DNA from: an uncultured Chloroflexia bacterium
Lineage (GTDB): Bacteria; Chloroflexota; Limnocylindria; Limnocylindrales; CSP1-4
DNA length: 64,000 bases
Assembly (NCBI GenBank): GCA_963715295.1
Contig: CAVQRP010000006.1
Coordinates: 155,585 to 219,584 of the forward strand
Direction of reading: 5' to 3'
The notes under the pieces are model-generated. The model searched no databases. It saw only the letters and a list, made by a program, of their open reading frames with translations, and was not told where the DNA came from. Positions 186 to 18,451 of this stretch are shown here, piece by piece (position 1 is the first letter of the stretch; the number at the start of each line of letters is the position of its first letter). The position numbers and the translations under genes were made by a program.

Positions 186-256
186 GCCGCGCCGCTCGGA
201 CGACGCGCGCGGTGTCGGAAACCGCCATCGACGGTACCGACGAAAGGAGACCAGGC

Positions 257-1631: not shown

Positions 1632-1708
1632 CGTTCACTGCTTCCGTCGATGGGGGACATCGCATGAGGCCAGGGGTCTCAGACGTCGTGCCAGGTGCGT
1701 GTCGGGGC

Positions 1709-1796
1709 TATCGTGCGATCGGAGCGCTGTAGGCTTTCTTTCTGAGCGTGATGTCCGAAGCGGCGAAGGCCTCGGTCATTGTGCGGTTCGCGAGCA
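1709..1796 (+). repeat. array repeat copy A (both arms present; promoter and tRNA-Pro segment deleted)
   Basis: Left core TATCGTGCGATCGGAGCGCTGTAGGC is joined after 8 nt to the right-arm sequence TGAGCGTG...GAAGCGGCGAAGGCCTCGGTCATTGTGCGGTTCGCGAGC. Confidence 0.8.
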
Positions 1797-1982
1797 CGAA
1801 ATCGTCCGACGCAGGCCTTGCCCAGCTGGCGCCCATGGTGCAGGGGTAGCGCAGCCTGCCACTTGTATCCGATCGCTGGGGTCCGGTGTATCAGTCCCGT
1901 GTCGCCTTCTCGAAGGCCGTCAGGAAGACCTCCCAGCCGGCATCGTCCAGGGGCGTGTGCGCGAGCATCGGGTACGTATGGC

Positions 1983-2010
1983 TTGCGATGCTGCCAATTG
2001 GTGCTAGCAT
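1983..2010 (+). promoter_or_regulatory. putative sigma-70-type promoter of the mazEF-like cassette (probably a leaderless mRNA)
   Basis: TTGCGA (1983-1988), a 16-nt spacer containing the palindrome CCAATTGG and an extended TGc, then TAGCAT (2005-2010). The ATG at 2017 lies 6 nt after the -10 element. Confidence 0.45.
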
Positions 2011-2016
2011 ATCGCG

Positions 2017-2226
2017 ATGGCATCGACAAGAAGCACGTTCACCATCGACCGAGCACTGGCCCAGCGTGCGCGCCACCTCGGGGTCAATGTCTCCGCGGCT
2101 GCTCGTGACGGCGTCGAGGCGGCGGTGCGAACGGCGATGGCGCGAGCAGACCGGGATGCCTACCGCAAACGACCCGAGCGACCGGATCCGTTCTGGTCTG
2201 ATGTCGAAGCCTGGAGCGAGGAGTGA
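2017..2226 (+). CDS. type II antitoxin (ribbon-helix-helix / MazE-like)
   Basis: 69-aa ORF that overlaps the downstream MazF-like gene by 4 nt. The N-terminus STFTIDRALAQRARHLGVNVSAAARDG is typical of RHH antitoxins. Confidence 0.7.
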   Translation: MASTRSTFTIDRALAQRARHLGVNVSAAARDGVEAAVRTAMARADRDAYRKRPERPDPFWSDVEAWSEE

Positions 2227-2531
2227 TACGGGGCGAGATCTGGTACGCGGAGGTCGGACGCAAGCGGCGGCCCGTGCTGATCTTGACTCGGACGGAGGTC
2301 ATCGACGTCCGTGCATTGGTGACCGTGGCGGAGGTGACCACGTCCATCCGCGGCATCGCCGCGGAAGTCGAGTTCGACGACGAGGAGGCCGGCCTCGACC
2401 GATCATCGGTCGTCAACTGCGATGGACTGCACACGATCACCAGGACCTCGCTGACGACGTACGTCGGCTCGGTCAGCGAAGCGACGATGGAGCGCGTCTG
2501 TTCGGCGATCGGCTACGCCCTGGGTTGTTGA
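2223..2531 (+). CDS. mazF: MazF/PemK family endoribonuclease toxin
   Basis: 102 aa. RGEIWYAEVGRKRRPVLILT... and ...SVVNCDGLHTI match the PemK/MazF fold signature. Coupled to the upstream antitoxin. Confidence 0.8.
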   Translation: MIRGEIWYAEVGRKRRPVLILTRTEVIDVRALVTVAEVTTSIRGIAAEVEFDDEEAGLDRSSVVNCDGLHTITRTSLTTYVGSVSEATMERVCSAIGYALGC

Positions 2532-2619
2532 GCGGCCAGCAGCACCGGCGGCGGACTTGGAGCATTGGTCCGTGGCAGATGGCATCTGCAACGGGTCGTA
2601 CCTCGGGAGTCCATCGAGC

Positions 2620-2830
2620 GTGTCGGTTGTGATACGAGCGCTGCAGGCCCATCGGTGTCGCTATCGAAGCGGGCTGTGCACCCCATCCACGCAGGGACTT
2701 CGTCGGGGTGTAGCGCGGCGGTAGCGCACATGCTTTGGGAGCCCACGAGGGGTTTGCGGTGAAGGCTCAGGGGTCCCACGCACGATGGGCTGAGCGGCGA
2801 AGGCCTCGATCATCGTGCGGTTCGCGAGCG
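2620..2830 (+). repeat. array repeat copy B (contains a tRNA-Pro 5' fragment at 2704-2742)
   Basis: Degenerate left core (GATACGAGCGCTGCAGGCCC), GTCGCTATCG box, and tRNA nt 1-39 with 2 D-loop differences. Then GGTTTGCGGTGAAGGCTCAGGGGTCC...GAGCGGCGAAGGCCTCGATCATCGTGCGGTTCGCGAGCG. Confidence 0.9.
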
Positions 2831-2928
2831 TCGTCCGCCCTCCTGCATGCAGCCATCGTGCGGTGCGAGGACCTTCGACTCACTGTCGTCAGCTCACAGA
2901 TACTGTGAGACTGCGTTACTGTGACACG

Positions 2929-3168
2929 ATGAAGAACATCACTGTCTCTGTACCTGACGACGTCTATCGCGCCGCTCGCATCCGAGCCGCGGAGGAGGGC
3001 CGATCAGTCAGTGGCATGGTCGCGACCTACCTGCGCTCGCTTTCCTACGATGACGCCGAGTTCTCGCGGTTGGAAGCGCAGCAGCGTCGCATCCAAGGTC
3101 AGATCACGCGCTTCCGAGCGATGGACCGCCTGACGCGCGATGAGGTTCACGAACGTGCGCTTCGTTGA
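2929..3168 (+). CDS. ribbon-helix-helix (CopG/VapB-like) antitoxin
   Basis: Internal ATG of track ORF 2815..3168. MKNITVSVPDDVYRAARIRAAEEGRSVSGMV is a typical RHH N-terminus. Direct repeats TACTGTGA x2 lie just upstream and could be an operator. Confidence 0.7.
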   Translation: MKNITVSVPDDVYRAARIRAAEEGRSVSGMVATYLRSLSYDDAEFSRLEAQQRRIQGQITRFRAMDRLTRDEVHERALR

Positions 3169-3571
3169 CACGAACATCCTCTTGTACGCGATCTCACGCG
3201 ACCCGGCGGAGGAGGGCAAAGCGATGATCGCGAACGAGATCATCGACGGTGGTGAGATCGGCCTGTCGGTGCAGGTCCTGCAGGAGTTCTACGTCCAAGC
3301 GACCCGGGCAACTCGAGAAGACGCCATCACCCACGATGAGGCAGCCGGACTGGTCGAGGCTTGGTGTCGGTTCCCGGCGCAGGTCACGAGTCTCGATGTG
3401 ATGCGAGCGGCGCTGTCGACTCGGAGTCGCTTCGGCATCTCCTACTGGGACGCGGCGATCCTCGAGGCCGCTCGTGCCCTTGGATGTTCAGTGGTGTTGT
3501 CCGAAGATCTCGACGATGCCACCGACTACGAGGGCATCCGCGTGGAGGACCCCTTCCGACACGCTGCCTGA
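3140..3571 (+). CDS. vapC: PIN-domain ribonuclease toxin VapC
   Basis: 143 aa with FVDTNILLYA (first acidic PIN residue) and WDAAILEAA motifs. Overlaps the antitoxin 3' end. A GTG at 3155 is an alternative start. Confidence 0.8.
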   Translation: MRFTNVRFVDTNILLYAISRDPAEEGKAMIANEIIDGGEIGLSVQVLQEFYVQATRATREDAITHDEAAGLVEAWCRFPAQVTSLDVMRAALSTRSRFGISYWDAAILEAARALGCSVVLSEDLDDATDYEGIRVEDPFRHAA

Positions 3572-3581
3572 AGGCCGTCGA

Positions 3582-4145
3582 TCACCACCCCTCGAGCGGT
3601 CGCACCGAGCGCATGGCGGCGGTCGCCTCGTCCATGTCGAAGACTGTCGGGTCGAAGTCCAGCGGCGCCCATTCGCGCAGGTGGTCGAGCTCGGGATGTG
3701 CGGGATCCGACAGCGCGTCAAGCAGGTCCTCGTAGCCCATTGGCCCCCCGCAATCCTCGGGCGGGCAAGCCATGCTTCCGGCCAGGCAGTTCGGACCATT
3801 GAAGTCCGACCGCTGCGGGCTGATTTCCTCGACCACGACGTCGTGCTCCCAGCCATCGCCGAAGTCGTAGTCCCATCGCAGCTTCGAGCCCACGCCGGGC
3901 AGTACATCATGTAGCTGAAACGCGCGTTCGTCGAGGTCATCGTCGGGCCACTCGGGGTCGGGCATCGCGTACTTGGCATCAGCGCCTTCGAAGGCGTGCA
4001 GGTGTCCACCGAGCCAGCCCATCGCTGCCTCCAGGATGGCTGCCAGCTCAGCCAGGTCGATGTCGGAGCGAACCGTGATCCGTCGCCACACCGGCGGCTT
4101 CACCGACCTCAGGGTGATCTTCAGCTGGTAGACGGTGTCCTCCAT
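3582..4145 (-). CDS. plasmid pRiA4b ORF-3 family protein
   Basis: Start MEDTVYQLKITLRSVKPPVWRRI (ATG at 4145). Hallmarks YDFGDGWEH and CPPEDCGG. This family is typical of mobile-DNA contexts. Confidence 0.8.
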   Translation of the reverse strand: MEDTVYQLKITLRSVKPPVWRRITVRSDIDLAELAAILEAAMGWLGGHLHAFEGADAKYAMPDPEWPDDDLDERAFQLHDVLPGVGSKLRWDYDFGDGWEHDVVVEEISPQRSDFNGPNCLAGSMACPPEDCGGPMGYEDLLDALSDPAHPELDHLREWAPLDFDPTVFDMDEATAAMRSVRPLEGW

Positions 4146-4274
4146 GTCGTCTCCTGGTCGGCGATGGCTACTCAGCCTGACTGATCGACTGTGTCGTCCC
4201 GCGCCATTGTGGCTGCTCGACGCAACCCGACCAGCGTATGCTCGTCGCTCAGCGCTTGGCTTAGTAGCCGCGTC

Positions 4275-4347
4275 ACAGCGGCATTCGAGCGCTGTAGGCC
4301 CCTCTGTGTCGCTATCGGGACGCCCGCCGCAGAGTGTTCCGGGAGCC
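4275..4347 (+). repeat. array repeat copy B2 (left arm plus collapsed tRNA fragment; right arm missing)
   Basis: GCGGCATTCGAGCGCTGTAGGCCCCTCTGTGTCGCTATCGGGACGCCCGC, followed by CGCAGAGTGTTCCGGGAGCC, a collapsed version of GCGCAGAGGTAGCGCACATGCTTTGGGAGCC. Confidence 0.7.
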
Positions 4348-4367
4348 CTTCGAGCCACGCCACCTGG

Positions 4368-4766
4368 TCACTCGCGAGGGAACACCTCTACCGAAGCCGC
4401 GTGACCGGGCTCGCGAGCGAGTCGGGCATCGCAGGTGACCAGCGGTGCACCGAGGGCCTCCGCGAGTGCCAGGAACGCCGCGTCATAGGCCGTCACGTTG
4501 TGGCGAAGCTCCCACATGCGGTCCGCGAGAGAGACGTGTGGGTAGCGCACGATCGTCAGATTCCCGAAGTCCATCCGTGCGTCGGCGGCGCGATCGTCAT
4601 TGATCGCTCCGGCGACCACGAGGCGACGCAGCGCATGCTGGAACTCCACATCGATCAGGTGCGGAGCATGCAGGTCGCCGTCGTTGATGACACGGTCGAC
4701 AAGACGTGCAACTCGGGGCTGGCCCGCCAGAACGCCGATGACGGCCGACGTATCGACCACGATCAC
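4368..4766 (-). CDS. vapC: PIN-domain ribonuclease toxin VapC
   Basis: 132 aa with MIVVDTSAVIGVL (PIN N-terminal acidic motif) and AYDAAFLALAEALGAPLVTCD. Overlaps the upstream antitoxin gene by 4 nt. Confidence 0.85.
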   Translation of the reverse strand: MIVVDTSAVIGVLAGQPRVARLVDRVINDGDLHAPHLIDVEFQHALRRLVVAGAINDDRAADARMDFGNLTIVRYPHVSLADRMWELRHNVTAYDAAFLALAEALGAPLVTCDARLAREPGHAASVEVFPRE

Positions 4767-4993
4767 GGGCGATCGCGACCCGAGCGTACGGCTCCAACGA
4801 TGAGGTCGATATCGGCGCCGCCCGAGCGGGATCCCGCGCGAACGATCACATCAGCGACAGGCGGACGCTCCGCCAGGCGCGTGATGTCCCTGAGCAGGTA
4901 ATCCGACAGTGACGTCCCAGCCGCGGCCGCCCGGGCACGCAGGGTCCGGTGGACATCGTCAGGCACGTTGCGAATCTGTATCGAGTGACTCAT
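4763..4993 (-). CDS. vapB: VapB/FitA-like ribbon-helix-helix antitoxin
   Basis: Internal ATG (4993) of track ORF 4763..5044. MSHSIQIRNVPDDVHRTLRARAAAAGTSLSDYL is typical of RHH antitoxins partnered with VapC. Confidence 0.75.
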   Translation of the reverse strand: MSHSIQIRNVPDDVHRTLRARAAAAGTSLSDYLLRDITRLAERPPVADVIVRAGSRSGGADIDLIVGAVRSGRDRP

Positions 4994-5003
4994 GCGGGTG
5001 ATG

Positions 5004-5057
5004 ATACACCCGAGTTGGGTGTATGACATGGTATCCGCATGCACGTGCGTACATGCG
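5004..5057. promoter_or_regulatory. palindromic operator-like sites upstream of vapBC
   Basis: Perfect inverted repeat ATACACCC-gagtt-GGGTGTAT (5004-5024), plus CCGCATG-n10-CATGCGG (about 5033-5057), directly upstream of the minus-strand vapB start. Confidence 0.45.
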
Positions 5058-5325
5058 GCGCCTCCGCACTTAAATCAGCGGCGGCTGACGATGCGCTCTG
5101 GTCGGTCATCTAGACGATCGCTACTTCGACAAGCTCCGATCGGCGTCCCCGTGAGTCTCCTGCTCGTCCGGGGCTGATGCTGCTCGAGGCCATGCCGCAG
5201 GCCCTCGGCGTCGCCAGCTGACCATCCTCCGTGAGCGCCAGGGCAGCGACCGCGCCGAGGTCGCGGGCATCGATGAACGCTCATCGATCTCCCTTCTGTC
5301 ATGCGTCTTCCGCTGAAGTGGCAGG

Positions 5326-5542
5326 TTATCGTGCGGTTCGAGCGCCGTAGGTCCATCTGTGTCGCTATCGGGGCGCCCGTGTGTACCCTAGTCCACGCAC
5401 GGATACCGTCGGGGTGTAGCGCAGAGGTAGCGCACATGCTTTGGGAGCCTACGACCGGTTTGCGGTGCAGGCTCCGGGGTCTCGAGCGTGGACCGCGAAG
5501 CGGCGAAGGCGTCGATCATCGTGCGGTTCACGAATGTGAGCG
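5326..5542 (+). repeat. array repeat copy C (contains a tRNA-Pro 5' fragment at 5410-5448)
   Basis: Complete unit: TTATCGTGCGGTTCGAGCGCCGTAGG, GTCGCTATCG, GTGTGTACCCTAG, and 39/39 identity to tRNA nt 1-39. The right arm ends ATCATCGTGCGGTTCACGAATGTGAGCG. Confidence 0.9.
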
Positions 5543-5732
5543 TGTTCGGTGATCACCGCTGCGCGGCCGCACGTCACCGGGTTCGCCAACTCGGCCGATT
5601 CGAGCTCAGTCTCACGGGTACAGACCACTGAGGTGCTGACGTGTTCGGGCACGCTCGGCCCCGGCCATCCTTGAGTTCGGCAAACGGCAGGTCCTCGGTC
5701 CAGATCCGAGTGTCGGCTCCAGCGACTTGAAC

Positions 5733-5762
5733 GAAGAAGCCGGCCGCTAGGCCGGCTTCTTT
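5733..5762 (-). terminator. stem-loop terminator downstream of 5808-6311
   Basis: GAAGAAGCCGGCC-gcta-GGCCGGCTTCTT(T) is a perfect 12-13 bp stem, with short T/A-rich flanks on both strands. Confidence 0.55.
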
Positions 5763-5807
5763 CATCGAGATGCGCTGGCGGAAGGCCTGCGCATCGGTGT
5801 TGGCCGA

Positions 5808-6311
5808 TCAGGCCTCGGCGGGAGCCTCGGTCTCCTCCGGAGCTGCCTCGGCAACAGCATCCAGGGCCTCGTCGGTCACGTCGATGGCTTCTACCGAGCC
5901 ACCGAGCTCAGCGAGCTTGCCGGTGATCGCACCAGCCTCTGCGGCGGTCGCCAGGACCCCGACGGCTGCCTTGCCGCCGGTCAGCTCCGCGCCGATACGG
6001 GCCTTGTCCGCATCGCTCATGCCCAGACCCTTGTGATGGAAGGCGCCAAGGATCCCGCCGCCGACCACGCCAGCCAGCAACGCCGGGGGCGCCACGACCG
6101 CGAGGAGGAGGCCGATGCCGGCGCCCTTTGCCTTGCTGCGCGAGCCCATCTTGTGGGTCTTCAGCCCACCCTTGTCGTCAAGGACGAGCACGCCGATCGA
6201 GGTGAGCTTCACCTCGTCGCTTGCCTTGTCCCACGCCTTCAGCGACTCGACCGCCGCGTCCGCAGCAGCCTCGTCCGCAAAGACCCCTAAGACCACCTGG
6301 TTCTCAGCCAT
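5808..6311 (-). CDS. DUF1269-like membrane protein
   Basis: 167 aa. N-terminal VVLGVFADEAAADAAVESLKAW domain, a glycine-zipper TM segment (GAGIGLLLAVVAPPALLAGVVGGGILGA), then GMSDADKARIGAELTGGKAAVGVL. This architecture is typical of DUF1269. Confidence 0.65.
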   Translation of the reverse strand: MAENQVVLGVFADEAAADAAVESLKAWDKASDEVKLTSIGVLVLDDKGGLKTHKMGSRSKAKGAGIGLLLAVVAPPALLAGVVGGGILGAFHHKGLGMSDADKARIGAELTGGKAAVGVLATAAEAGAITGKLAELGGSVEAIDVTDEALDAVAEAAPEETEAPAEA

Positions 6312-6483
6312 GTTTGTTGCTCCTTCGATATGTCGTTAGTGCGACGGAGGATATTTCCGTTGCGCGACTCGACCGGCGGCCGAGGCGCTGTGCGCGATGA
6401 GCTGATCCCAATCGAGCGGAACCTCAAGACTACCCCCTGCGCCGCGATGACGACGCCAGGTGCCAGCAGACGGATCGTGCTGA

Positions 6484-7116
6484 CTACTCTTCTGGTCGGA
6501 GGCTCTGGCAGGTCTCGTCGTTCTTGATCGCGGTGCTGAGCTCGTTGGCAGGCTCGAGTTGCCGGATTTGGTGGAACGTTTGCTTGGCATCCTTGAGCAA
6601 CCCCTCGATGTCGCCCTTGATCTCATCGACACCGGTCGCGATCCCTTCGGCACCCGAGCCGCCGAGTGCTTCGGCTGCGCTCTTGATGTCCCCAACGCCG
6701 ACTTGAACGTCGCTGGTCAGTTGCACGAGGTCATCTTTCGCCTTGTTGCCGTCGTCCGTCTCGGGTGCGCCGATGGCTCCGAGCTGATCGGCGAGGTCCT
6801 TGGTCGCTTGCTCGGCGTCAGCGAACCCTTGTGACAGCGCGTCCCTTGAGATGCCGTTCTTGATATCGGCCGCGATGGTCTTGACCGAGTCTTCCCACGT
6901 CGCGATGGCACCGCACACATCGCTTGCCCACACGGCCGCCGTGGTGGCCTCCTGGGTCGCGGCGGGCTGAGTCGTGGTCGCAGCAGTCGTGGCCGCCGCC
7001 GCCTGCGTCGCCTCGCTGTCAACACCGCTGCATGCCACGATCAGCAGCGTGGCGCTCGCGGCCAGAGCCAGCAACTGCACCGGAAGGCGCACTCGTACTC
7101 GTTGTGTCATCTCCAC
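6484..7116 (-). CDS. secreted lipoprotein, function unknown
   Basis: 210 aa. Signal peptide with lipobox LLIVAC, a Thr/Ala-rich linker, then a helical acidic domain. Confidence 0.65.
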   Translation of the reverse strand: MEMTQRVRVRLPVQLLALAASATLLIVACSGVDSEATQAAAATTAATTTQPAATQEATTAAVWASDVCGAIATWEDSVKTIAADIKNGISRDALSQGFADAEQATKDLADQLGAIGAPETDDGNKAKDDLVQLTSDVQVGVGDIKSAAEALGGSGAEGIATGVDEIKGDIEGLLKDAKQTFHQIRQLEPANELSTAIKNDETCQSLRPEE

Positions 7117-7206
7117 CCCTCCTCATCATCTTCCTACAGGCGCAGCGCGCTCTCACTGGCCTCGTTGACGATGGGACTTGGAGGACCACGTGTCGATGGG
7201 CCGGCC

Positions 7207-7432
7207 AGCCCCTACCGCGGAGAGCTTTCATGGACGCGGCCGGAATGCAGTCCAGGAAGACCTCCACGCAGCGCATCAGGTCGAGGTTGCCGAAGAGCTT
7301 CTGCGACGTCTCTGACGATGGCACACCACCGCTGAAGTCAAACGTACCCAGGCTGGTCTCCACACGATCTGGGGTCGTGATCCTGGACGGGATCGGCGTG
7401 TTGCAGCCCTTGGGGATGTCGACGTTGCTCAT
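7207..7432 (-). pseudogene. N-terminal fragment of a DUF1254/DUF1214-family gene
   Basis: MSNVDIPKGCNTPIPSRITTPDRVETSLGTFDFSGGVPSSETSQKLFGNLDLMRCVEVFLDCIPAASMKALRG resembles the first ~75 aa of ~450-aa DUF1254 proteins. Similarity is lost after that, and the lipoprotein gene starts at 7116. Confidence 0.45.
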
Positions 7433-7633
7433 GGGGTCCTTCCAGCTCGTGCGCGTGCCGGCAGGGTGCTGCTTCGGGTTTCTGAGGGGCCGGAGAGCGA
7501 GGCGCAACCCTTCATCGCATCTTGCCAGAGCCCGTCTCGTCGCTTTGGTCCAGCTGGCGAGCCACAGAGATCGCGCGATCGGGCCCCGGCACTCGGCCGA
7601 CGGGCCAGGTGTGTCGAGGACGGCGTCGATCGG

Positions 7634-7840
7634 CGGCGGTTCACCTTCGAGCGCTGCAGGCCCCCTGCTATCGCTTGAGGGCCGCGCTGTGTACCCTAGT
7701 CACGCACGACCTCGTCGGGGTGTAGCGCAGAGGTAGCGCACATGCTTTGGGAGCCTTCGGGGGGTACGGCGCAGGCTCCGGGGTCCTGAGCGTGGTGGAT
7801 GGAGCGGCGAAGGCGTCGATTATTGTGTGGTTCGTGAGCG
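7634..7840 (+). repeat. array repeat copy D (contains a tRNA-Pro 5' fragment at 7716-7754)
   Basis: Left core CGGCGGTTCACCTTCGAGCGCTGCAGGCCCCC, GCTATCG box, GTGTACCCTAG, and 39/39 tRNA identity. The right arm ends GATTATTGTGTGGTTCGTGAGCG. Confidence 0.9.
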
Positions 7841-7929
7841 TGCGAGCCCAGAGATCTGCCTCGCACAGATCTATGGTCCTGTACGCTCGTCCCCTGTGCT
7901 AAGGTGACTACCTTGGTGACCACTTAGGC

Positions 7930-8178
7930 ATGAGGTACGACATGGCGGAGATCGGTATCAAGGAACTGAAGGCGACCACCTCATCGGTCATCGACGAGGT
8001 CGAAAGCGGCTCTGCCTACGTCGTCACACGGCGCGGCCGACCTGCCGCGGTTCTCTTGCCGGTCGACGAGGCCGAGGACCTCGTTCTTGCCAATGCCGAC
8101 GAGTTTGTCCGCCAGCGTCGACTCGCCCGCGCTGACTACGCCAAGCGGCGGACGGTCAGGCTGGAGGACATCGACTGA
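7930..8178 (+). CDS. Phd/YefM family antitoxin
   Basis: 82 aa with IGIKELKATTSSVIDEVESGSAYVVTRRGRPAAVLLPVDE. An alternative start is at 7942. Inverted repeat AGATCTG-n7-CAGATCT and GGTGAC direct repeats lie upstream. Confidence 0.8.
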   Translation: MRYDMAEIGIKELKATTSSVIDEVESGSAYVVTRRGRPAAVLLPVDEAEDLVLANADEFVRQRRLARADYAKRRTVRLEDID

Positions 8179-8471
8179 CTGCCTATGAGGTCCGGCTCTC
8201 GCGGTCGGCGGCCCGGCAGTTCAAGAAGCTCGGTGACGCTGATCGTGATCGCATCCGCCGAGCCCTCGAGCGACTCGCGCATGACGTCGCCCGCCCCGGA
8301 CGCGTCGCAGGCAAGTCCGTGAAGACCATCCGTGGTGCCGACGACACCTTCCACCGGTTGCGCATCGGCGACTACCGCGTGATGTACGACGTCATCGACG
8401 CCGACCACGCGGTCCTGGTGCTCGGCATCGTCGACCGAGCCGATCTGGAGCGCTGGCTCCGTAGCAGATAG
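8175..8471 (+). CDS. RelE/ParE family toxin (no canonical start codon)
   Basis: My own translation; this ORF is not in the track. LTAYEVRLSRSAARQFKKLGDADRDRIRRALERLAHDV...FHRLRIGDYRVMYDVIDADHAVLVLGIVDRADLERWL*. The frame is open only from 8136 and has no ATG/GTG/TTG. CTG at 8175 overlaps the antitoxin stop (CTGA). Confidence 0.7.
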   Translation: MTAYEVRLSRSAARQFKKLGDADRDRIRRALERLAHDVARPGRVAGKSVKTIRGADDTFHRLRIGDYRVMYDVIDADHAVLVLGIVDRADLERWLRSR

Positions 8472-8517
8472 CACTTGGCAAAGCGGTCGCGACTAGGCAA
8501 ACAGATCGAATGTGCAT

Positions 8518-8597
8518 GTGAGCGCAGAGGTGGCGCTCAGCCGTCGGGAGCCCAGGCGGGGTTTGGGCGAAGCCACGATCATCGTGCGGTTCGAGCG
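8518..8597 (+). repeat. collapsed array repeat copy E0, fused to copy E with no cassette between them
   Basis: GAGCGCAGAGGTGGCGC...GGGAGCC-caggcgg-GGTTTGGGCGAAGCC-ACGATCATCGTGCGGTTCGAGCG. This is a tRNA-fragment remnant with a shortened right arm, and its terminal core is also the left core of copy E. Confidence 0.7.
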
Positions 8598-8787
8598 CTG
8601 TAGGCCCCTGGAATCGCCATCGAGCGCGGGCTGTGTACCCTATCCACGCACGAACGCCGTCGGGGTGTAGCGCAGCGGTAGCGCACATGCTTTGGGAGCC
8701 TATCAGGGGTGAGCGGTGAAGGCTCCGCGGTCCCGAGCGTGGCGGGCCGAGCGGTGAAGGCCTCGATTATTGTGCGGTTCGCGAGCG
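8578..8787 (+). repeat. array repeat copy E (contains a tRNA-Pro 5' fragment at 8661-8699)
   Basis: Complete unit with 38/39 identity to tRNA nt 1-39 (D-loop AGCGG variant). The right arm ends GATTATTGTGCGGTTCGCGAGCG. Confidence 0.9.
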
Positions 8788-8954
8788 TGATCCACCCAGC
8801 TGGAGGTCCGGGCAGAGTCAAGGCTGCCCGGCCCGGCCTACAGGGTCGGCGGGTCTCCCGGAGAAGATGAAGCCCTGGATCGTCCAAGGGTCCCTGTCCG
8901 GCCACTGCTCGAAGCACGACAACTCAGCTTAGCCGCCGGTCCTCCTGTACCAGA

Positions 8955-9130
8955 TCACGATGATGTCGCCGACCGAAACGCGCGCTTGTTGAGGTCATTC
9001 TCCAGCCGCTCGGGATCGGGCATCGCGTATCTGGCCTGCGAGCCCGCTTCCGCGCCATCACGGCATTTCCCAGAATGTTTAGCGGTGAGGTAGACATTCG
9101 AGACCACGAGCCCCAGTATGCCCATCCTCG
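8955..9130 (-). pseudogene. remnant of a pRiA4b ORF-3 family gene
   Basis: ...DGAEAGSQARYAMPDPERLENDLNKRAF... aligns with FEGADAKYAMPDPEWPDDDLDERAF of the intact copy at 3582-4145. The YDFGDGWEH and CPPEDCGG parts are absent. Confidence 0.45.
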
Positions 9131-9190
9131 GATGAGTGTTGTCGGTGAGCCACCGGGGTTCGACCAAACCGGCCTGATGGAGGTGTTCCC

Positions 9191-10346
9191 ATGCGGGGAA
9201 CCGACAGGGGGATTGCGATGGGGGTCGCTTTGGTGGTTGCGGTGGCTGCGCCAGTGGCGGCACAGGGACCGGCGATCACCGAAGTCATCGGCGGCTTGAA
9301 TTCGCCCCGCGGTGTCGCCATCGGCGCCGACGGCACGATCTATGTCGCCGAGGCAGGGGTTGGTGGCACCGAGCCGTGTGCGACGCATGCGGAGCTCGGC
9401 GACATGTGTTTCGGGGCCAGTGGCGCCATCACGGCTGTCGCGGGTGGTGAGGCTTCGACCCTCGTCGACGGTCTTGCTTCGGGGCTCACCGCCACCGGAG
9501 AGGCCATCGGGCCATCGGATGTGACGGTGGGTGCAGATGGGACCGTTTGGTTCCTGGTCGGAGGCCCCGCTGCTGGATCTGCAGAGTTCCGCGCAGTCCA
9601 TCCCCGACGGCGCCGCTGCCGGCATGGGCCAGCTCTATCGCGTCGATGCTGATGGTGTGGCCCAGAGCGTGGCCGACTTCGCTGATTACGAGACGACCGT
9701 CAACCCCGATGCTGACCAGCCGGGCAATGCCGAACCTGATTCGAATGCCCACGGATTGGTGGAGACGCCAGAGGGTGCCGCGATCGCGGACGCGGGCGCG
9801 AACACCCTGCTACTCGTTGATGCCGGGGGTGTCATCTCTACCCTCGCTGTCTTCCCTGTCGTGATGCAGCCCGCTCCGCCAGACCCGGAAGCCGAGCCTG
9901 ACCCGGACGCAGAGCCGCCCATGATCCCGATGGATCCGGTTCCGACAGGCGTGGCGCTCGGCGATGATGGCGCGCTGTACGTGGGAGAACTGACCGGCTT
10001 CCCATTCCCGCCCGGTGGCGCCGCCGTGTATCGCGTCGCACCCGGGGAGGAGCCTTCGGTGTACGCCGATGGCTTCACCAACGTGATCGACGTCGAGTTC
10101 GCGCTCGATGGCACGCTCTACGTGCTCGAGCTCGCTCATGAAGGGCTCTTGAGTGCGGGAGAAGACGGACCTCCCATGGGTGGGCTGTGGAAGGTTCCCC
10201 CCGGTGGTGGCACTGCAGAGCTCATCACCAGTGATGGCCTACCGATGCCCGGCGGTCTGGCCGTCTCCGCCGATGGCACGGTCTACATCTCGACCTGCAC
10301 CGGCTGCCCACCCGGCGCGGGTGGGCTCGTCAGCATCCAGCCGTAA
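9191..10346 (+). pseudogene. ScyD/ScyE-family beta-propeller protein, frame-disrupted
   Basis: Signal peptide and GGLNSPRGVAIGADGTIYVAE are in track ORF 9191..9652. The rest (GALYVGELTGFPFPPGGA, DGTLYVLE, DGTVYIS) is in ORF 9531..10346 in another frame. The frame change is near 9570-9600. Confidence 0.65.
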
Positions 10347-10433
10347 CGATCGGACCGCCCTGAGTGGAAGCGCGTCGGCATACGGCCGGCGCGCTTTCTT
10401 TCAGCTCTCAGGATGTGAGGGCCCAGCGCACCA

Positions 10434-11090
10434 TCACTGGACGGTGAGCGTGCCCACCATGCCGGCCTCCCGATGTCCGGAGATCGAGCAGTAGTACGCT
10501 GTACGTGCCGGGCTCGATATCGGTCACGGTGGCTTCGCCCACCTCGCCCGCGGCCACGACGATCACGATCCCCAGCTCGTCCACCGTCAGGTTGTGCACG
10601 ACACGCCCGGCGTTCTTGAGCCTGATCGTCCAGTGCTCCGAGCTGGAGACCGTTAGCGCAGCCGGTGTGAACCACAGGTCCCGAGCTTCCACCTCGACCG
10701 TCGCGAGCGGAGGCTCATCGGCGGCTTGCGCGCACTGCGGTCGTCCCTTGCTGGGCGGTAGCGCACGCCTCGGACGCTGACGCTGGGACCGCGTCGATCG
10801 CGCCTGTCGACATCGACCGAGGGTCCCGAAGGGGAGGGTGGCTCTGTTTCGACTCGCACGTCGTCCGCGGTGCCATCTTGCAGGAGCGCCGTTCGACCAC
10901 CGGAGATGTCCCGCTCTTCGGACGCGCAGCTCTGGTCGTCCGACATCGGCACCGCGTTCCGGACGAGCGCACTGGCTTCATCGGACAGCCCCCGTTCCTG
11001 TGGATGGCCGGCCGCCACGGTAGATCCGAGGGCGAGGACGAGCACGACGGCGGCTGATATCGAGCGGAGCAAGGTCGGACGGTGCGGCAA
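10434..11090 (-). pseudogene. secreted cupredoxin-domain protein, frame-disrupted
   Basis: Signal peptide is in ORF 10653..11090 and the cupredoxin core (FTPAALTV...HNLTVDELGI) is in ORF 10408..10692. Removing one extra base near 10500 restores GTY(A)YYCSISGHREAGMVGTLTVQ* (Cu-ligand C, H, M motif, TGA at 10434-10436). A second frame change lies near 10690. Confidence 0.5.
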
Positions 11091-11164
11091 AGTGAGTCTC
11101 CCGCGATAATCACCCCCACGGACGATACATCCTACGCTACGTGGCGCGCCAAGGGCAGACCGCG

Positions 11165-11366
11165 GATCGTGGACGCTCGTGGCTGGCTCTTGCTATCGCC
11201 ACAGAGCCTCGCTGTGTACCCTAGTCACGCACGAACTCGTCGGGGTGTAGCGCAGAGGTAGCGCACATGCTTTGGGAGCCTTTGAGGCTCAAGCGGCGAA
11301 GGCTCGGGGTCCTGAGCATGGCGGGCCGAGCGGCGAAGGCCTCGATTATTGTGTGGTTCGCGAGCG
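11165..11366 (+). repeat. array repeat copy F (contains a tRNA-Pro 5' fragment at 11241-11279)
   Basis: Degenerate left core, TTGCTATCG box, GTGTACCCTAG, and 39/39 tRNA identity. The right arm ends GATTATTGTGTGGTTCGCGAGCG. Confidence 0.9.
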
Positions 11367-11553
11367 TGATTCGCGGCGAACTCCAGATGCTGATGGCCTG
11401 GCTGTCCGAGCGAGCCGCCTGACTCTGACTCCCGGCTTGGCGGCCACGGGATAATCGTCAGTAGCGGGAGGCGACGACGCGTGGCCCGCCGACCATGGCC
11501 GCTGAGGACCACGCCGAGCCACTGGCGAACCCGGCCCGCATTCGGGGGGACGT

Positions 11554-12196
11554 GTGATGGGTCTGCGCCGAAGCTGGTGGATCTCATTCTTCGGGGTACC
11601 GCACGGCCTGCCTGGACGGCTCGGCGTCAGGCTGATGCCGAGGAGCAGCCGGCCGTTCCACAACGTGATCGCCGCGGAGCTGGACCTCCAGCCGGAGGAT
11701 GAGCTGCTCGACGTCGGCTGTGGCTCGGCGACCCTGTTCGTCGACCACGCGGGGCACGTGCGCTACGTCGCCGGCCTCGACGCCTCCGAGCTGCAGCTCG
11801 AGATGGCCCGCCGCCGGCTGGCCGAGCGCATCGCGGCGGGCACCGCGGAGATCGTCGAGGGCGATGCCGACCACTCTGCCCTGGGAGGACGGCCGCTTCA
11901 GCGTCGCCACGTCGGTCAATGCCCTGAAGTTCTTCCCCGACCCGTTGGCAGCGCTGCGGGAGATGCACCGGGTCCTGCGCCCGGGTGGTCGGATGGCGGT
12001 CACGATGGGCGAGGCGGGGACGCCCGAAGGCGCGACCGAGGCCGTGGTCGACGGTTGGGCCAGTGGCAGTGGACCGACGACGCCGCGCAGGCGGCTGGTG
12101 GAGGAGGCCGGCTTCACCGATGTCGACGTCTCGGTGATGCCGGTGTTCTCGAAGGCGCTGCTGGCCCGCGGCATGAAGCGGCGGCAGCAGCGGTGA
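11554..12196 (+). pseudogene. class I SAM-dependent methyltransferase, frame-disrupted
   Basis: The N-terminal part with LDVGCGSATL (motif I) is in the frame of ORF 11554. After about 11875 the sequence continues in the frame of ORF 11699..12196 (TLPWEDGRFSVATSVNALKFFPDP...LRPGGRMAV). Confidence 0.7.
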
Positions 12197-12249
12197 AGCG
12201 GACGCCGAGCGGCAGACCAGCCGCTGGATCGGCGTGTGAGGGCGATCCG

Positions 12250-12990
12250 ATGCGACTGGCACCATCCCTGCATCGACTCGGCGAGGCGATCGTCAGCTGC
12301 TACCTCCTCGAGGAGGCCGGCGAGGTCACCATCATCGACGCGGGCGTGCCCGCCTACTACGGCGACCTGACGGCCGAGCTCGCGGCCATGGGCCGCACGA
12401 TCGAGGACGTCCGCGCGCTCGTGCTGACCCACGGCCACGACGACCACATCGGCTTCGCCGAGCGACTGCGTGCCGAGCGCGACGTGCCCGTCAGCATCCA
12501 CGAGCTCGACGCGGCCCTCGCGCGCGGCCAGGTCGGCAACCCGAGCGCCGGCATGGGCGAGCGCAGGCTCCGTTCCCTGCTGCACTACATGCTGTGGCTC
12601 ATGCGTCACGGCGGGATGCGGACCACGGCGCTGACGGAGGTCGGCACCTTCGACCCGGGCACGACGCTGGACGTGCCGGGCGCGCTGCGCGTCATCCACA
12701 CACCCGGACACACGCACGGCAGCGTCACCTTCCATGCGCCGGGGCACGACGCCCTCTTCGTGGGTGACGCGCTGGCCACGGACGCGGTCATCACCGAGCG
12801 CCGTGGTCCGCAGGTCTGTCCCTTCGCTGCCGATCCCGACGAAGCGCTGGCCTCGCTGGCGAGCATCGAGGAGATCGAGGCGCGCTGGCTGCTGCCCGGC
12901 CACGGGGAGCCCTGGACCGATGGCGTCGCGGCCGCGGTGGCCGCCGCGCGCGAGGTCGGCATCGGCCACCTCGCTCGGCCGAAACGGTGA
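12250..12990 (+). CDS. MBL-fold metallo-hydrolase
   Basis: ATG at 12250 inside the long track ORF 11554..12990. THGHDDHIG (HxHxDH zinc motif), HTPGHTHGS, and a later LPGHG. Confidence 0.8.
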   Translation: MRLAPSLHRLGEAIVSCYLLEEAGEVTIIDAGVPAYYGDLTAELAAMGRTIEDVRALVLTHGHDDHIGFAERLRAERDVPVSIHELDAALARGQVGNPSAGMGERRLRSLLHYMLWLMRHGGMRTTALTEVGTFDPGTTLDVPGALRVIHTPGHTHGSVTFHAPGHDALFVGDALATDAVITERRGPQVCPFAADPDEALASLASIEEIEARWLLPGHGEPWTDGVAAAVAAAREVGIGHLARPKR

Positions 12991-13025
12991 AGCCCATGTT
13001 CGTGTCTGTTCAAGGAGGTGACGAG

Positions 13026-14522
13026 ATGAGTGAGCAGCGTTCTCCTGATGGCCTGTATGTCGAGGAGTCCGGGACCCCGGGCTCGCCGGCCATCGTCTTC
13101 ATCCATGGAGCCGGCCAGAGCAGCCGCGAGTGGCGTCAGCACATGGACAGGCTCCCTGGCTTCCACTGCCTGGCGCCAGACCTGCCCGGGTTCGGGCGAA
13201 GCAACCATCTCGGGTCCGCGACCAAGGAGCGCGTGGCGGACCTGCTGGCCGCCTCATCGAGGAGCGCGTCCCGACGCAAGCGCGCCAGCGTCGTGGGCAT
13301 CTCCTCGGGCGGGCTGCACATCCACGCCCTGCTCGATCGCCACCCCGACCGCGTCGAGCGGGCTGTCATCGACGGCTCACCCCCCTTTGGCACGCCGCGC
13401 ATCGGCCGCGCGATCATGCGTCTGTGCATGCTTGCCATGGCGCCATTCATCCACACTCGCCCGCTCCTGGCGCTGTTCCGCGACACCCACGACCCGGAGG
13501 ACCTGCGGGTCGCATCACGCCTGGAGTTCGGGCGCGTCGTCGGGGAGTGCTTCGGGGAGTTCGCAGCCCTCGATGCGCCGAGCCCCGCCCTGCTCATCGC
13601 CGGCGAGAAGGAGAGCATCGTCCGATCGATGAACGCCGCCCTGGCCGAGGTCATGCCCCGGGGCGAGGCCTGGTACGTCCCCGGCCTCGGACACTGCTGG
13701 CAGAAGGCGGATCCCGACCTGCACATCCGCACGGTCGAGGCCTGGGTCAGCGGACAGGAGCTGCCGTCCGAGCTCCGTCGAGAAGCCGCTCCCTCGCCGG
13801 CCAAGGTCGAGCAGGTCCGGCGCATGGGCCCGGAGTTCTGGTACGTCAGGCACAAGGGTCGGCTCATGCGCTTGGCGAGGTTCTACTTCCGGCCCTTCCG
13901 GAAGCCTCTCGCCGAGGCCTACGGCAAGGCGGCAGGGGAGGCCATCGCCAGGGACGCGCTCGGGCGCTTCGAGGTCCTGCTGCCGGACATCCCCTACATC
14001 GGCGGTGGCGAGAACAGCATGACCATCACCCTCGTCAAGGTCGCGGCCAAGCTGGCGATGTACCGAGCACTCCGGGCCCGCGGGGCATCGGAGGAGGAAG
14101 CGGCCCGCCTCATCCACCTCGGGGAGGTGGCCTTCTACAAGAGCGTTCCGATGCGCTGGGTGATGCGCTTGCAGGGTCGAGGCTTCCTCAGCCGCAGAGG
14201 CGTGGATATGTGGAGACGCATCGCTGCCACCAGCCAGGAACGCCGCTACCCGGACGACTGGGTGTACGAGATCGTCGAAGGCGACGGAAGCGACTCCGGG
14301 ATGCGGCTGGACTGTATCGAGTGCGGGGCCGTCAAGTACCTCGACCGCGAAGGTGCCTCCGAGTACGCCCCGTATCTCTGCTGGATCGACTATCCCCAGT
14401 TCGCCGCGATGGGCCTGCGGCTCGACCGCACCGAGACCATCGCGCAAGGCGGCCAGCGCTGCGACTTCCGGGTGAGTCGGGGTGAACCAACTCACGTCGA
14501 GCCCGAGTTCCTGCACGTCTGA
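13026..14522 (+). CDS. fusion protein: alpha/beta hydrolase domain plus ATC-hydrolase-like domain
   Basis: ATG at 13026 lies 5 nt after AAGGAGGTG. N-terminal IVFIHGAGQS...VVGISSGG (nucleophile elbow). The C-terminal ~230 aa are a paralog of 257-955 (PYIGGGEN, ERRYPDDW, YLCWIDYP, CDFRV). A possible compensated double frameshift lies at about 13248-13290. Confidence 0.75.
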   Translation: MSEQRSPDGLYVEESGTPGSPAIVFIHGAGQSSREWRQHMDRLPGFHCLAPDLPGFGRSNHLGSATKERVADLLAASSRSASRRKRASVVGISSGGLHIHALLDRHPDRVERAVIDGSPPFGTPRIGRAIMRLCMLAMAPFIHTRPLLALFRDTHDPEDLRVASRLEFGRVVGECFGEFAALDAPSPALLIAGEKESIVRSMNAALAEVMPRGEAWYVPGLGHCWQKADPDLHIRTVEAWVSGQELPSELRREAAPSPAKVEQVRRMGPEFWYVRHKGRLMRLARFYFRPFRKPLAEAYGKAAGEAIARDALGRFEVLLPDIPYIGGGENSMTITLVKVAAKLAMYRALRARGASEEEAARLIHLGEVAFYKSVPMRWVMRLQGRGFLSRRGVDMWRRIAATSQERRYPDDWVYEIVEGDGSDSGMRLDCIECGAVKYLDREGASEYAPYLCWIDYPQFAAMGLRLDRTETIAQGGQRCDFRVSRGEPTHVEPEFLHV

Positions 14523-14598
14523 GTCCGCTCGTCGCACGGGAGACCTGGATCCGCGACGGTGAGGCCCGTCACGGTGTACGACCTCGAACGCCCAAGGG

Positions 14599-14807
14599 TT
14601 ATCGTGCGGTTCGAGCGCTGTAGGTCCCTCGGCGTCGCTATCGGGGCGCCGTGTGTACCCTAGTCAGGCACGAACACTCGTCGGGGTGTAGCGCAGCGGT
14701 AGCGCACATGCTTTGGGAGCCGCTGAGCGCTCTGCGGCGAAGGCTCCGGGGTCCTGAGCGCGATGGCCGGAGCGGTGAAGGCCTCGATTATTGTGCGGTT
14801 CGCGAGC
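14599..14807 (+). repeat. array repeat copy G (contains a tRNA-Pro 5' fragment at 14682-14720)
   Basis: Complete unit: TTATCGTGCGGTTCGAGCGCTGTAGG, GTCGCTATCG, GTGTGTACCCTAG, and 38/39 tRNA identity. The right arm ends GATTATTGTGCGGTTCGCGAGC. Confidence 0.9.
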
Positions 14808-14893
14808 ACGACCGGCTCGACTGGCGTCGCGCACGACCGTCGCCACCGATACACCCCGACGGTGCGCAGCCGCCTCGAGTCCTCGGTAGGCGG

Positions 14894-17800
14894 CTACAGG
14901 CTGGCCTGGAGCTCGTGGACCCGCTGGAGGTGGGCGGTCGCGCCGAGCTCGTCGAGGACGGTCGCAGCCCTGGAGAGGTCCTCGACGGCCGCTTCTGTCT
15001 GCCCAGCCGCGATGCGGTCGCTAGCCCGCTGCTCGTAGAGCTCAGCCTCGGCCAGCCGGTCACCGAACTGGCGGGCCAGCTCGAGGGCGCGCTCGTAGCG
15101 CTCGAACTCGACGCGGCCGACGCCCGACCGGGCCCGGGCCGTCTGCAGCAGTAGCTCGGTCTGCTCGATCTTGACCGGCATGAACTGGCAGAACACGGCC
15201 AGGTCCGCGCTGGCCTCGAAGGCGATGGCCGCCTGGGCCGCGTCGCCATCGCGCAGGTGCTGCTCGCCGATGACGCCGTGGCCGACCATGGCGCAGGCCT
15301 TGTTGCCGACCCGGTCGGCGACCGAGATGGCCTTGGTGGCGTACTCGATGGCGGCGGTCGAATCGCCCCGGATGCCCTCGACGATCCCGCGCGCCAGGTC
15401 GGCGTCGAGGCTGGCGTTGGGATCGCCGCTGAGAACGCCGAGCTCGTAGCCTCGGTCCGTCCACTCGACGGCCTTCTCGAACTCGCCCAGATGGCCGTAG
15501 GCCGTACCCAGTTGTCCCGCGGCCACCGAGGCGATGTAGGGCTGGCCGGACTCGATGAGGGTCGGGATGGCCCGCTCCCATGACTCGATGGCCTCGGCGA
15601 ACTCGCCGGACGCATAGTGGGCCTGCCCGGTGGCCGCGACGGCCATGGCTATCAACTCGGGTGACCCGCTCGCCTCGGCAAGTTCGGTGGCTCGCCGCAG
15701 CGCCGTCGCCAGCTCTGGACTGGAGCGATACTGTTCGCCACTGAGCGCGCGAGTCACGCCGATCTCAAGGTAGGCCCGTGCCGACATCGCCGGGTCTTCC
15801 AGGATCTCGCCATCGGCGATCACCGCTTCGAGAAGCGCCACGGTCTGATCGAGCGGCACGAAGTCGCCACCGGCTTCGGCCTGAAGGTAGCGAAGCTCGG
15901 CCCGCAGGCGCCGGGCCGGCGTGTCGATGGAGTCGTCGTCGGCCAGCAGGGCAAGCGCCCGCCGTGCGAAGTCGACGGCCTCGTGCCGGGCGAACCGTGA
16001 GCGGGCATGGCGAGCGGCGAGCGCCAGGTATTCGATGGCTCGGGCGCGATCCTCGGCTCGCTCGAAGTGGTGAGCGAGCACGGGCGCCATGTCGTCGCGG
16101 TGGTCCCCATACAGCGCCAGCAGCGTCTCCGCGACCTGGATGTGCAGCGAGCGCCGCTCCTGCTTGAGCAGTGACTCGTAGGCCGCGTCCTGGATGAGGG
16201 CATGACGGAAGAGGTACTCGAGTTCAGGCATCGAGGCGGCCAGCGCGATGAGCCCGGCGCCCTCGAGAAGACTCAGCTCACGCCCGATGCCCCCGCCTGA
16301 CCCGGTCGTCACGATGGCTCCTTCACGATCTGGTCGAGCACGCTGACGGGGAAGGTGCGGCCGATGACCGAGGCTACGCGCAGGACCCGGCGTGCCTCGC
16401 TGGGCAGGCGATCGATGCGGGCAAGGAGCAGGCCGTGCAGCGTCTCGGGGATCTCGACATCGACGACCTTGGCGGTCGCGGTCCAGCGGCCGTCCCGCAA
16501 CTCGATAGCCTCGCGGTCGATGAGCATGCGCACGATCTCCTCGACGAAGAGCGGGTTGCCCTCGGCCCGCGCCAGGATCATGGCCCGGGTGGCGGCCGGC
16601 AGGGAATCGATGGCCAGCAGGTTCGCCACCAGGCGCTCGCCGTCCTCGGCCCCCAGCGGCTTGAGGCGAAGGTCGACCAGGGCCTCGCCGAATGCGTCCC
16701 CGGCTGCCCCGATGAGCTGCCAGCCCGGCACCTCGCGCTCTGCGCGACTGGCCACCACCCACAGCACGGGCATGGTAGACAGCGCCGGGACGAGCGGCAG
16801 CAGGAGTGCCACCGAGGCGTCATCGGTCCAGTGCACGTCGTCGCAGACCATGACCACGGGCTGGGTCCGCGCCGCACCCGCGATGAGACTCGAGATGGAC
16901 TCCGTGTAGCGGAGCTGCAGCGTGCGCGGCTCCATGTTCGCCAGCCGTTCCTCGCCGGCCGCGTCCAGCGGCAGCGAGAGGAGGTGGCTGAGGATGGGAC
17001 CGAACTCCGCGGCGTCTCCGCCCACCAGATCGTCGAGTCGGCGTGCCAGCTTCTCGCTGGCCTCGTCGGCGGGGATGCTCTCGAGCGGTTCGGGCAGGCC
17101 CAGCAGCGCGCGGACCAGGTCGATGGCCAGGTGCAGCGGCAGGTTGCGGCCGTAGCTGACCGTGCGGGCCTCGACCCAGCCGAAGCCGTCGGCCTCCGCG
17201 ACATCGCGCAACTCCCGCAGCAGGCGGCTCTTGCCGATGCCCGGCTCGCCCACGACCAGAGCCATGCGGCCGATGCCGCCACGCACGGGGGCGAGGGTGG
17301 CTACGAGCTGCGCCAGCTCGGCATCCCGCCCCACCATTCGACTGCTGAGACCGGCCACGCCGCGTACCGATCTGAGGATGCCCGTACGGCCCAGGACCTC
17401 GTAGGCCTCGACCGGTTCGGCTTTGCCCTTGACGCTCACGGGGCCGACGTGGCGGCTCTCGATCGCGCCGCTCACCCGGCTGTACGTCTCGCCGGTGATC
17501 ATGATGCCGCCGGGCCGGGCCTCCGACTGCATCCGCGCGGCCACGTTCAGCGTGTCGCCGTAGATGCGTGAGTCCCGGGTGGTGCCGCCCGCGGCGGTGT
17601 CGCGCACCACGACCTCGCCGCTGTTGATGCCGACCCGGATCTGGAATTCGATGCCCTGGGGTCGCAGCTCCGCGGCGAACGTGTCGATGCTGCCGACCAT
17701 CTCGATGGCGGAGCTGACCGCCCGGGCGGGGTCGTCCTCGTGGGCCGAGGGCAGACCGAACAGGGCCATGAAGCCATCGCCGGTGTGCGACGCGACCCAG

Positions 17801-18368: not shown

Positions 18369-18451
18369 TTATCGTGCTATTCGAGCGCTGTAGGCCCTCC
18401 GCTACCGGCTCGAGAGCCGCGCTGTGTACCCTATCCACGCACGAACCTCGT
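18369..18451 (+). repeat. array repeat copy H: left arm and promoter-like segment directly upstream of the intact tRNA-Pro
   Basis: TTATCGTGCTATTCGAGCGCTGTAGGCCC...GCTACCG...GTGTACCCTATCCACGCACGAACCTCGT is homologous to the left arms of copies C, E and G. No right arm follows the tRNA. Confidence 0.85.

Follow-up and report, generated by a model that had tools for sequence, protein, structure and literature searches.

Islands that integrate at tRNA genes rarely leave the 5' part of their target behind. Of 3919 known Islander islands 159 left a 5' fragment of the tRNA gene (tDNA), and tandems of at least three members number only 4 in the same collection (PMC4383910). Islands at dusA replace the 5' end of the target gene by island sequence, with putative -10 and -35 elements lying upstream before and after integration (PMC4482086), and islands are known to grow at tRNA genes via repeated insertion, the Tycheposon islands of Prochlorococcus, including those at tRNA-Pro-tgg, being an example (10.1101/2020.12.28.424599). 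Here we describe an array of repeat units upstream of a tRNA-Pro(TGG) gene in a soil Chloroflexota bacterium that is known from metagenome-assembled genomes (MAGs) only. The window, i.e. the whole stretch of DNA that was analysed, comprises 64,000 nucleotides (nt) and corresponds to contig C6:155585-219584 of a 3.0-Mb MAG that is 66% complete. Each unit carries a copy of the tRNA-Pro upstream region and of the tRNA 5' half, and the units are separated by small gene cassettes. We consider it probable that the units are junctions left behind when small cassettes without a recombinase gene were inserted, one after another and in one direction, at the anticodon loop of tRNA-Pro(TGG).

ARAGORN identifies a single intact tRNA in the window, the tRNA-Pro(TGG). 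Repeat finding and alignment bear out the six additional tRNA-Pro 5' halves of an earlier note on this DNA: positions 1-39 of the tRNA, up to GGGAGC, recur six times on the + strand, differing from the real gene at no more than one position, each time with the same upstream segment and the same right arm. The complete unit has a length of ~215 nt, is present six times at 2620-14811 and combines the tRNA-Pro upstream region and the 39-nt half with a conserved right arm of ~90 nt that is not derived from the tRNA. At its 5' end it begins with a left arm (..ATCGTGCGGTTCGAGCGCTGTAGGCC) and a variable spacer; TGTGTACCCTA and the leader CACGCACGAAC..CGT then precede the tRNA half, which is followed by the right arm with two copies of the motif GAGCGGYGAAGGC (R1 and R2) and ATYATYGTGCGGTTCGCGAGCGTG at its end. 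Both arms terminate in a 17-nt core (GTGCGGTTCG..; core sequence ATYGTGCGGTTCG). The units and their remnants are as follows, "box" denoting the GCTATCG box or its variant.

1708-1799 (approximate), + strand: collapsed unit X, a left arm fused to an R2 core, without promoter and without tRNA half.
2620-2833, + strand: unit A (rank 6 from the tRNA); left arm 2627-2649, box 2660-2666, degenerate -10 CACCCC 2679-2684, 5' half 2704-2742, R1 2756-2769, R2 with the 17-nt core 2792-2832.
4271-4324, + strand: left-arm remnant Y, within the cassette between units A and B.
5324-5539, + strand: unit B; left arm 5331-5353, box 5364-5370, -10 TACCCT 5384-5389, 5' half 5410-5448, R1 5462-5475, R2 5498-5538.
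7640-7843, + strand: unit C; weak left arm 7640-7662, box 7667-7673, -10 TACCCT 7692-7697, 5' half 7716-7754, R1 7766-7779, R2 7802-7842.
8577-8790, + strand: unit D; left arm 8584-8606, box GCCATCG 8616-8622, -10 TACCCT 8636-8641, 5' half 8661-8699, R1 8713-8726, R2 8749-8789.
11191-11369, + strand: unit E; left arm not recognisable, box 11192-11198, -10 TACCCT 11217-11222, 5' half 11241-11279, R1 11293-11306, R2 11328-11368.
14597-14811, + strand: unit F (rank 1, the most recently displaced); left arm 14604-14626, box 14637-14643, -10 TACCCT 14656-14661, 5' half 14682-14720, R1 14734-14747, R2 14770-14810.
18367-18526, + strand: working copy; left arm 18374-18396, box GCTACCG 18401-18407, -10 TACCCT 18427-18432, intact tRNA-Pro(TGG) 18452-18526.

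The array is larger than first described, as unit X, remnant Y and three further decayed units, located up to 14 kb upstream of the window, add to the six units. An R2-like remnant that precedes the left arm of unit D marks another collapsed junction, and the layout of unit X is that of the tRNA-Pro upstream region in congeners lacking an array. Within the 3.0-Mb assembly the repeat is confined to this one locus. The identity of the displaced copies to the real gene stops after GGGAGC (18490), two bases beyond the anticodon loop. Across units the tRNA half is 95-98% identical, R2 being conserved to the same degree, and the flanks differ by 20-50%. For the conserved arms, which contain the GAGCGGYGAAGGC motif and have the core at either end, the best interpretation is that of sequences for protein binding or recombination. 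Inspection by eye makes a coding function of the unit unlikely, since the unit alignment contains indels of 1-2 nt.

The segment upstream of the tRNA-Pro halves is very probably the tRNA-Pro promoter region. A TAnnnT hexamer ending 5-20 nt upstream is found at 27 of the 42 tRNA genes of the genome and at 1.5% of random positions, and in the working copy TACCCT ends 19 nt before position +1 of tRNA-Pro, making its assignment as -10 element, already proposed in the earlier note, a reasonable one. The distance of about 24 nt given there holds if counted from the first base of the hexamer (24-26 nt); from its end the distance is 18-20 nt in units B to F and the working copy. TACCCT had also been said to be kept in every full repeat, which is correct for the real gene and five of the six displaced copies; copy A reads CACCCC and has lost the -10 box, leaving five intact extra -10 boxes rather than six. 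Transcription of truncated 5' halves from the displaced copies is plausible because these five retain an intact TACCCT.

The GCTATCG box, which the earlier note had placed about 17 nt ahead of TACCCT, has neither a fixed spacing nor a fixed sequence. It lies 12-13 nt from the hexamer in units A, B, D and F and 18-19 nt from it in units C and E and the real copy, unit D reads GCCATCG, and within the block 26-36% of the positions deviate from the consensus. As the spacing varies and the working copy reads GCTACCG, we do not regard the box as a -35 element. A consensus scan of the units revealed no -35 element at 16-18 nt, and no -35 consensus emerged across the aligned upstream regions of the 42 tRNA genes.

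A second TAnnnT match occurs in the right arm. The conserved AT-rich patch GATTATTGTG (2792-2832, the same block in every unit) contains TATTGT in 64 of 93 units, the others reading differently, and GATCATCGTG in the remainder. We rejected this right-arm core as a true outward promoter, as its sequence shows no link with cassette orientation and one third of the units read CATCGT. The 17-nt core also resembles the sequence directly upstream of tRNA-Pro in array-less relatives. In one congener (G009) and in the most distal unit of another (G035) TACGGT occupies the position of TACCCT at the same 19-nt distance, and for this reason the cores may represent inactivated copies of the -10 region of the tRNA itself.

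Arrays of the same kind, with 2-17 units, are present in many of 36 other genomes of the genus. In 11 arrays all units have a single polarity and the intact tRNA is always last. The genes downstream of the tRNA, encoding a small open reading frame (ORF) product without Pfam match, a DUF2568 protein, a small protein with a weak match to DUF7340 and a GGDEF protein, are syntenic across species, and the upstream side is variable. The exact junction sequence was found in 25 stretches of Chloroflexia/Limnocylindrales MAGs and in 54 metagenome contigs, and nowhere else; a search of viral contigs with two patterns gave 0 matches, i.e. no free or phage-borne form. The cassettes are shuffled between species, the same cassette occurring at different ranks with 85-97% amino acid identity. 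The phd-relE cassette, for instance, adjoins the tRNA in G021, is fourth from the tRNA in G000 and is the most distal delimited cassette in G031; the tails behind relE have diverged too far to trace one insertion from this tRNA-proximal position in G021 to the internal positions elsewhere.

The units decay with their rank from the tRNA. The -10 box is intact in 17 of 18 units at rank 1-2, in 12 of 16 at rank 3-5 and in 4 of 12 at rank 6 or higher (lost in 1/18, 4/16 and 8/12, respectively). Over the same rank classes the divergence from the consensus rises from 4.3 via 12.1 to 25% for the -10 block, from 6.3 via 11.2 to 17.9% for R2 and from 1.8 via 3.1 to 4.7% for the tRNA half, whereas it is flat for the naturally variable segments of the unit. 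The -10 block is thus the fastest-decaying of the conserved blocks, faster than the tRNA half. This decay is compatible with units that selection maintained as working promoter and 5' half up to their displacement: units near the tRNA would be intact because they were under selection until recently, distal ones having been free for longer.

Four features fit serial insertion, namely a breakpoint in the anticodon loop, one common polarity, conservation of the 3' flank and decay in the order of rank; the gradient is the key argument. An incoming cassette would carry an attP-like site composed of left arm, tRNA promoter, tRNA positions 1-39 and right arm. Upon insertion its promoter and 5' half would join the resident 3' half, creating a new working tRNA gene, and the prior promoter with its 5' half would be pushed upstream and joined to the right arm of the newcomer. 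We infer that the crossover takes place in the anticodon loop, the classical crossover site of tRNA-targeting integrases, and that the recombinase acts in trans. If the insertion model holds, each of the six extra promoters once served tRNA-Pro as its working promoter and is now a by-product that would decay with age. The youngest units (F to B) are intact in sequence and probably still fire, which would give rise to read-through RNAs with a tRNA 5' half at their start.

Among the genomes compared, arrays accompany only one tRNA-Pro allele, in which the anticodon stem reads CATGC/GCATG. Units are absent from several congeners that possess a 76-nt allele with a CGTGC/GCACG stem, the relatives concerned being G007, G016, G036, G015, G018 and G028 (L037-L042). 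Such a restriction would be expected if an incoming 5' half has to pair with the resident 3' half.

A number of observations weigh against serial insertion at the tRNA. First, no tyrosine or serine recombinase was found in or beside any array or in the 54 metagenome contigs. A search of up to 15 genomes gave no array stretch that matched PF00589 or PF00239, and phmmer searches with 6 seeds against the six-frame ORFs of the arrays and the 54 contigs returned only tRNA-derived artefacts, two apparent recombinase matches being translations of tRNA-like DNA; the 10 largest cargo proteins are regulators and enzymes. In G009, which is 90% complete, an Xer-like pair is all that is present. Second, the working tRNA of G009 has a different type of upstream region and yet the TACGGT at the same distance. 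Third, homology of cassettes between genomes ends mostly at the 17-nt cores and not at the tRNA half, and the interior of the unit is only partly linked to either neighbour, which requires that crossovers take place at the cores as well, or that units undergo gene conversion. Fourth, array-less congeners already possess left-arm-like and core-like sequence upstream of tRNA-Pro, and neither this nor the collapsed junctions (unit X and upstream of unit D) fit the model. Finally, the tRNA half, with a divergence of 4.7% in old units, is better preserved than would be expected of a pure scar. The joint would lie inside CATGCTTTGGGAGC in one crossover model and inside the core ATYGTGCGGTTCG in the other.

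Several of these points would be accounted for if the tRNA half were a passenger and the cassettes moved via the cores at both unit ends, either by site-specific recombination, e.g. by host Xer-like enzymes, or by homologous exchange between arrays, the breakpoint in the anticodon loop going back to one ancient event. The core-bounded cassette homology, the fusions of an R2 core to a left arm, the presence of both core copies upstream of the tRNA in array-less congeners and the sole Xer-like recombinases of G009 all speak for this explanation. It leaves unexplained why -10 boxes and halves are pristine near the tRNA and decayed distally and why the 39-nt half is far better conserved than its flanks, and the cores lack a dif-like dyad; we regard it as unlikely.

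Two side observations were made. One of the two conserved Xer-like genes matches its Pfam model in two pieces in different frames (G000:C8:38198-38735; likewise G022:C4 and G024:C5), which may reflect either a genuine frameshift or a mistake in the assembly of long reads. In addition, tRNA-gene-like translations (GVEPTLGFEPRTCCLR) lie inside unit-bearing metagenome contigs (L110, ~8700-8844; L073, ~250-339), and these stretches may be further tRNA genes or fragments inside cassettes.

The cassettes between the units of the window have a length of 0.7-3.6 kb. They encode a MazF-type toxin (together with the putative MazE of the earlier note), an RHH-PIN pair, a pRiA4 ORF3 protein, FitA-PIN, a DUF1269-like protein, Phd-RelE, a cupredoxin, a methyltransferase-MBL gene with a hydrolase, and a cyclase-ATPase-TPR regulator. 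The following cassette features bear on their expression.

7844-7929, + strand: phd-relE leader; it has a conserved -10-like TGTGCTAAGGT of its own as well as GGTGACCAC direct repeats, kept in 3 of 4 genomes compared.
~11436-11455, + strand: likely own promoter CTTGGCGG-N6-GATAAT, ahead of the riboswitch in the methyltransferase cassette.
11458-11545, + strand: c-di-GMP-II-GAG-type riboswitch aptamer (Rfam 58 bits, gathering score 40).
11554-12990, + strand: methyltransferase/MBL gene, directly behind the aptamer.

Given these cassettes, the displaced promoters might be kept to express the genes downstream, similar to the Pc promoter of integrons and renewed with each cassette. The intact TACCCT in five of the six window copies and in nearly all units of rank 1-2 would be in line with such a role, as is the orientation of the first gene in the window, which follows that of the unit after 4/6 units (5/7 with collapsed unit X). 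The larger sample, comprising 96 cassettes behind displaced units from the 11 arrays and the 54 metagenome contigs, does not show this bias: the first gene is co-oriented with the unit in 45 of 96 cases or, counted by protein family, in 27 families as opposed to 39 with the reverse orientation, each of the 66 families having one fixed orientation (0/66 mixed). Retention of the -10 box is independent of orientation (29/40 co-oriented versus 36/44 opposed cassettes), the median distance from unit to start codon is 163 nt, and the -10 box is the very block that is lost fastest. Moreover, three types of co-oriented cassette (methyltransferase, phd-relE and RHH-PIN) have -10-like boxes of their own along with a riboswitch or repeats. 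Expression of the cassettes, one of the roles suggested in the earlier note, is hence quite improbable as the reason why the promoters are there.

The repeats ahead of the toxin-antitoxin (TA) pairs, which include the TACTGTGA repeats ahead of the RHH gene, could be operators. Aptamers of the c-di-GMP-II-GAG/-GCG variants, scoring 47-63 bits, occur in 13 array cassettes, namely that of the window, L015:16914-16998 and 11 sites in L016-L018, L022, L023 and L025. The methyltransferase/ATC-hydrolase cassette is the most recurrent type in the arrays (31 proteins, always co-oriented). An ATC-hydrolase-like domain is encoded twice in the window, by a free gene (104-955) and fused to an alpha/beta hydrolase (12987-14522); the two copies (255-774 versus 13822-14341) share 76-77% DNA identity and represent a paralogous cassette pair in one array. 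Large STAND/AAA-TPR regulators with LuxR, BTAD or cyclase domains form many single-gene cassettes (L071, L075, L092, L107; 14894-18051 in the window).

The earlier note had further pointed out that GGGAGCC at the end of the half can pair with a downstream GGCTCC, giving an alternative hairpin. The complementarity stands, the hairpin is not supported. GGAGCC lies 21 nt from GGCTCC, and in 46 units 92.4% of the cells are complementary between the two (21 cells broken). None of the 6 pairs exhibits a compensatory change, extending the lack of covariation seen earlier; shuffled partners pair equally well (92.5%), and RNAalifold does not predict the helix, the right arm yielding nothing beyond helices of 2-6 mostly wobble-rich pairs and the overall consensus structure, at -13.7 kcal/mol, being weak. 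The inverted repeat is a conserved sequence, with no evidence for a conserved structure. For half plus right arm of the six copies the minimum free energy z-scores are -0.5, +0.5, -1.3, 0, -3.1 and +0.2, five of them near 0, and the folds differ. A short hairpin, GAGCC-UUUCA-GGCUC, was discarded, being present in only one (v1) of two segment variants with one compensatory cell, no better than shuffles and absent from the RNAalifold prediction. So was an insulating terminator in the right arm, which was flagged in unit C only (1/6), with counts not above those of shuffles. At E<=1 the matches to Rfam in window positions 1-20000 are the tRNA and the one riboswitch, no family being assigned to the units. 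Folding of unit D as attC-like single-stranded DNA was no better than that of shuffles (z = +0.68 for the top and +0.44 for the bottom strand).

It is consequently very improbable that the units are kept to make stable chimeric small RNAs of tRNA-Pro 5' half and right arm, acting as tRNA-half-like regulators or RNase P decoys via the GGAGCC/GGCTCC hairpin, since the intact promoter of young units, the inverted repeat and the well-conserved R2 are set against the lack of covariation, folds close to those of shuffles, the missing Rfam family and common terminator and, for a decoy, the missing acceptor 3' strand, without which an RNase P substrate cannot form. Taken together, comparative evidence does not support the view that the units are a system for cassette expression or for structured small RNAs.

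If the cassettes insert serially at tRNA-Pro, the extra promoters merely accompany an uncommon kind of tRNA targeting, in which the incoming DNA brings promoter and 5' half and not the 3' end. Because of this, each insertion would leave behind a complete and probably strong promoter, whereas islands of the common 3' type never leave one, and the rank-ordered units would form a natural decay series of orphaned promoters in which the tRNA half and the arm repeats are kept. It is possible, albeit only tentatively proposed, that the locus is a gene-capture platform independent of integrons: a recombinase acting in trans, and not recognisable as a linked tyrosine or serine enzyme, would swap promoter and 5' half of an essential tRNA in each event, and the freshly displaced promoters would stay active, giving the array several promoters that fire outward and whose sense or antisense read-through modulates the cassettes until the -10 boxes mutate. 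The array is common among soil Limnocylindrales, and no recombinase is visible in it. We regard it as a candidate for an integron-like system of gene capture and know of no such system described in this phylum.

The array can be compared with several known systems. With tRNA-targeting islands (Islander/TIGER) it shares a displaced tDNA fragment, which lies on the correct side and in direct orientation, an identity block that stops within the tRNA at the anticodon loop, regeneration of the target gene by element sequence and the displacement of older insertions by newer ones. It differs in that the fragment is the 5' half with promoter, a rare class, in that arrays hold 7-17 units, whereas tandems of three or more are so few among known islands, in that cassettes measure only 0.7-5 kb, and in that no member carries an integrase, a gene that the Islander definition asks for within each island. 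Like the dusA islands, the array has the 5' end of its target replaced, a displaced 5' remnant and putative promoters upstream, but the dusA elements occur singly, as large islands or prophages that bring an integrase and sit in a protein-coding gene, and do not form arrays in a tRNA gene. The Tycheposons resemble it in their growth beside a tRNA by repeated insertion, in scattered partial tRNA copies and in a gradient of heterogeneity from the tRNA, and they carry integrase and replication modules, genes that were not found in these arrays. Sedentary chromosomal integrons with TA cassettes likewise have small cassettes that are mostly inserted promoter-proximally, a recurring site, many TA pairs and shuffling between species. 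Here, IntI was not found and no recombinase lies near the tRNA, nor was there attC-like folding (z = +0.4 and +0.7) or co-orientation with a common promoter, and the cassettes examined have apparent promoters of their own. Cis-mobilizable elements (CIMEs), which are att-flanked, integrase-less and mobilised in trans, and the Xer-dependent pdif modules of Acinetobacter plasmids are small, often TA-bearing and bounded by recombination sites. The array has in common with them cargo modules that do not themselves encode a recombinase; neither a helper element nor a dif-like site was identified here, and the sites consist of a tRNA 5' half together with its promoter.

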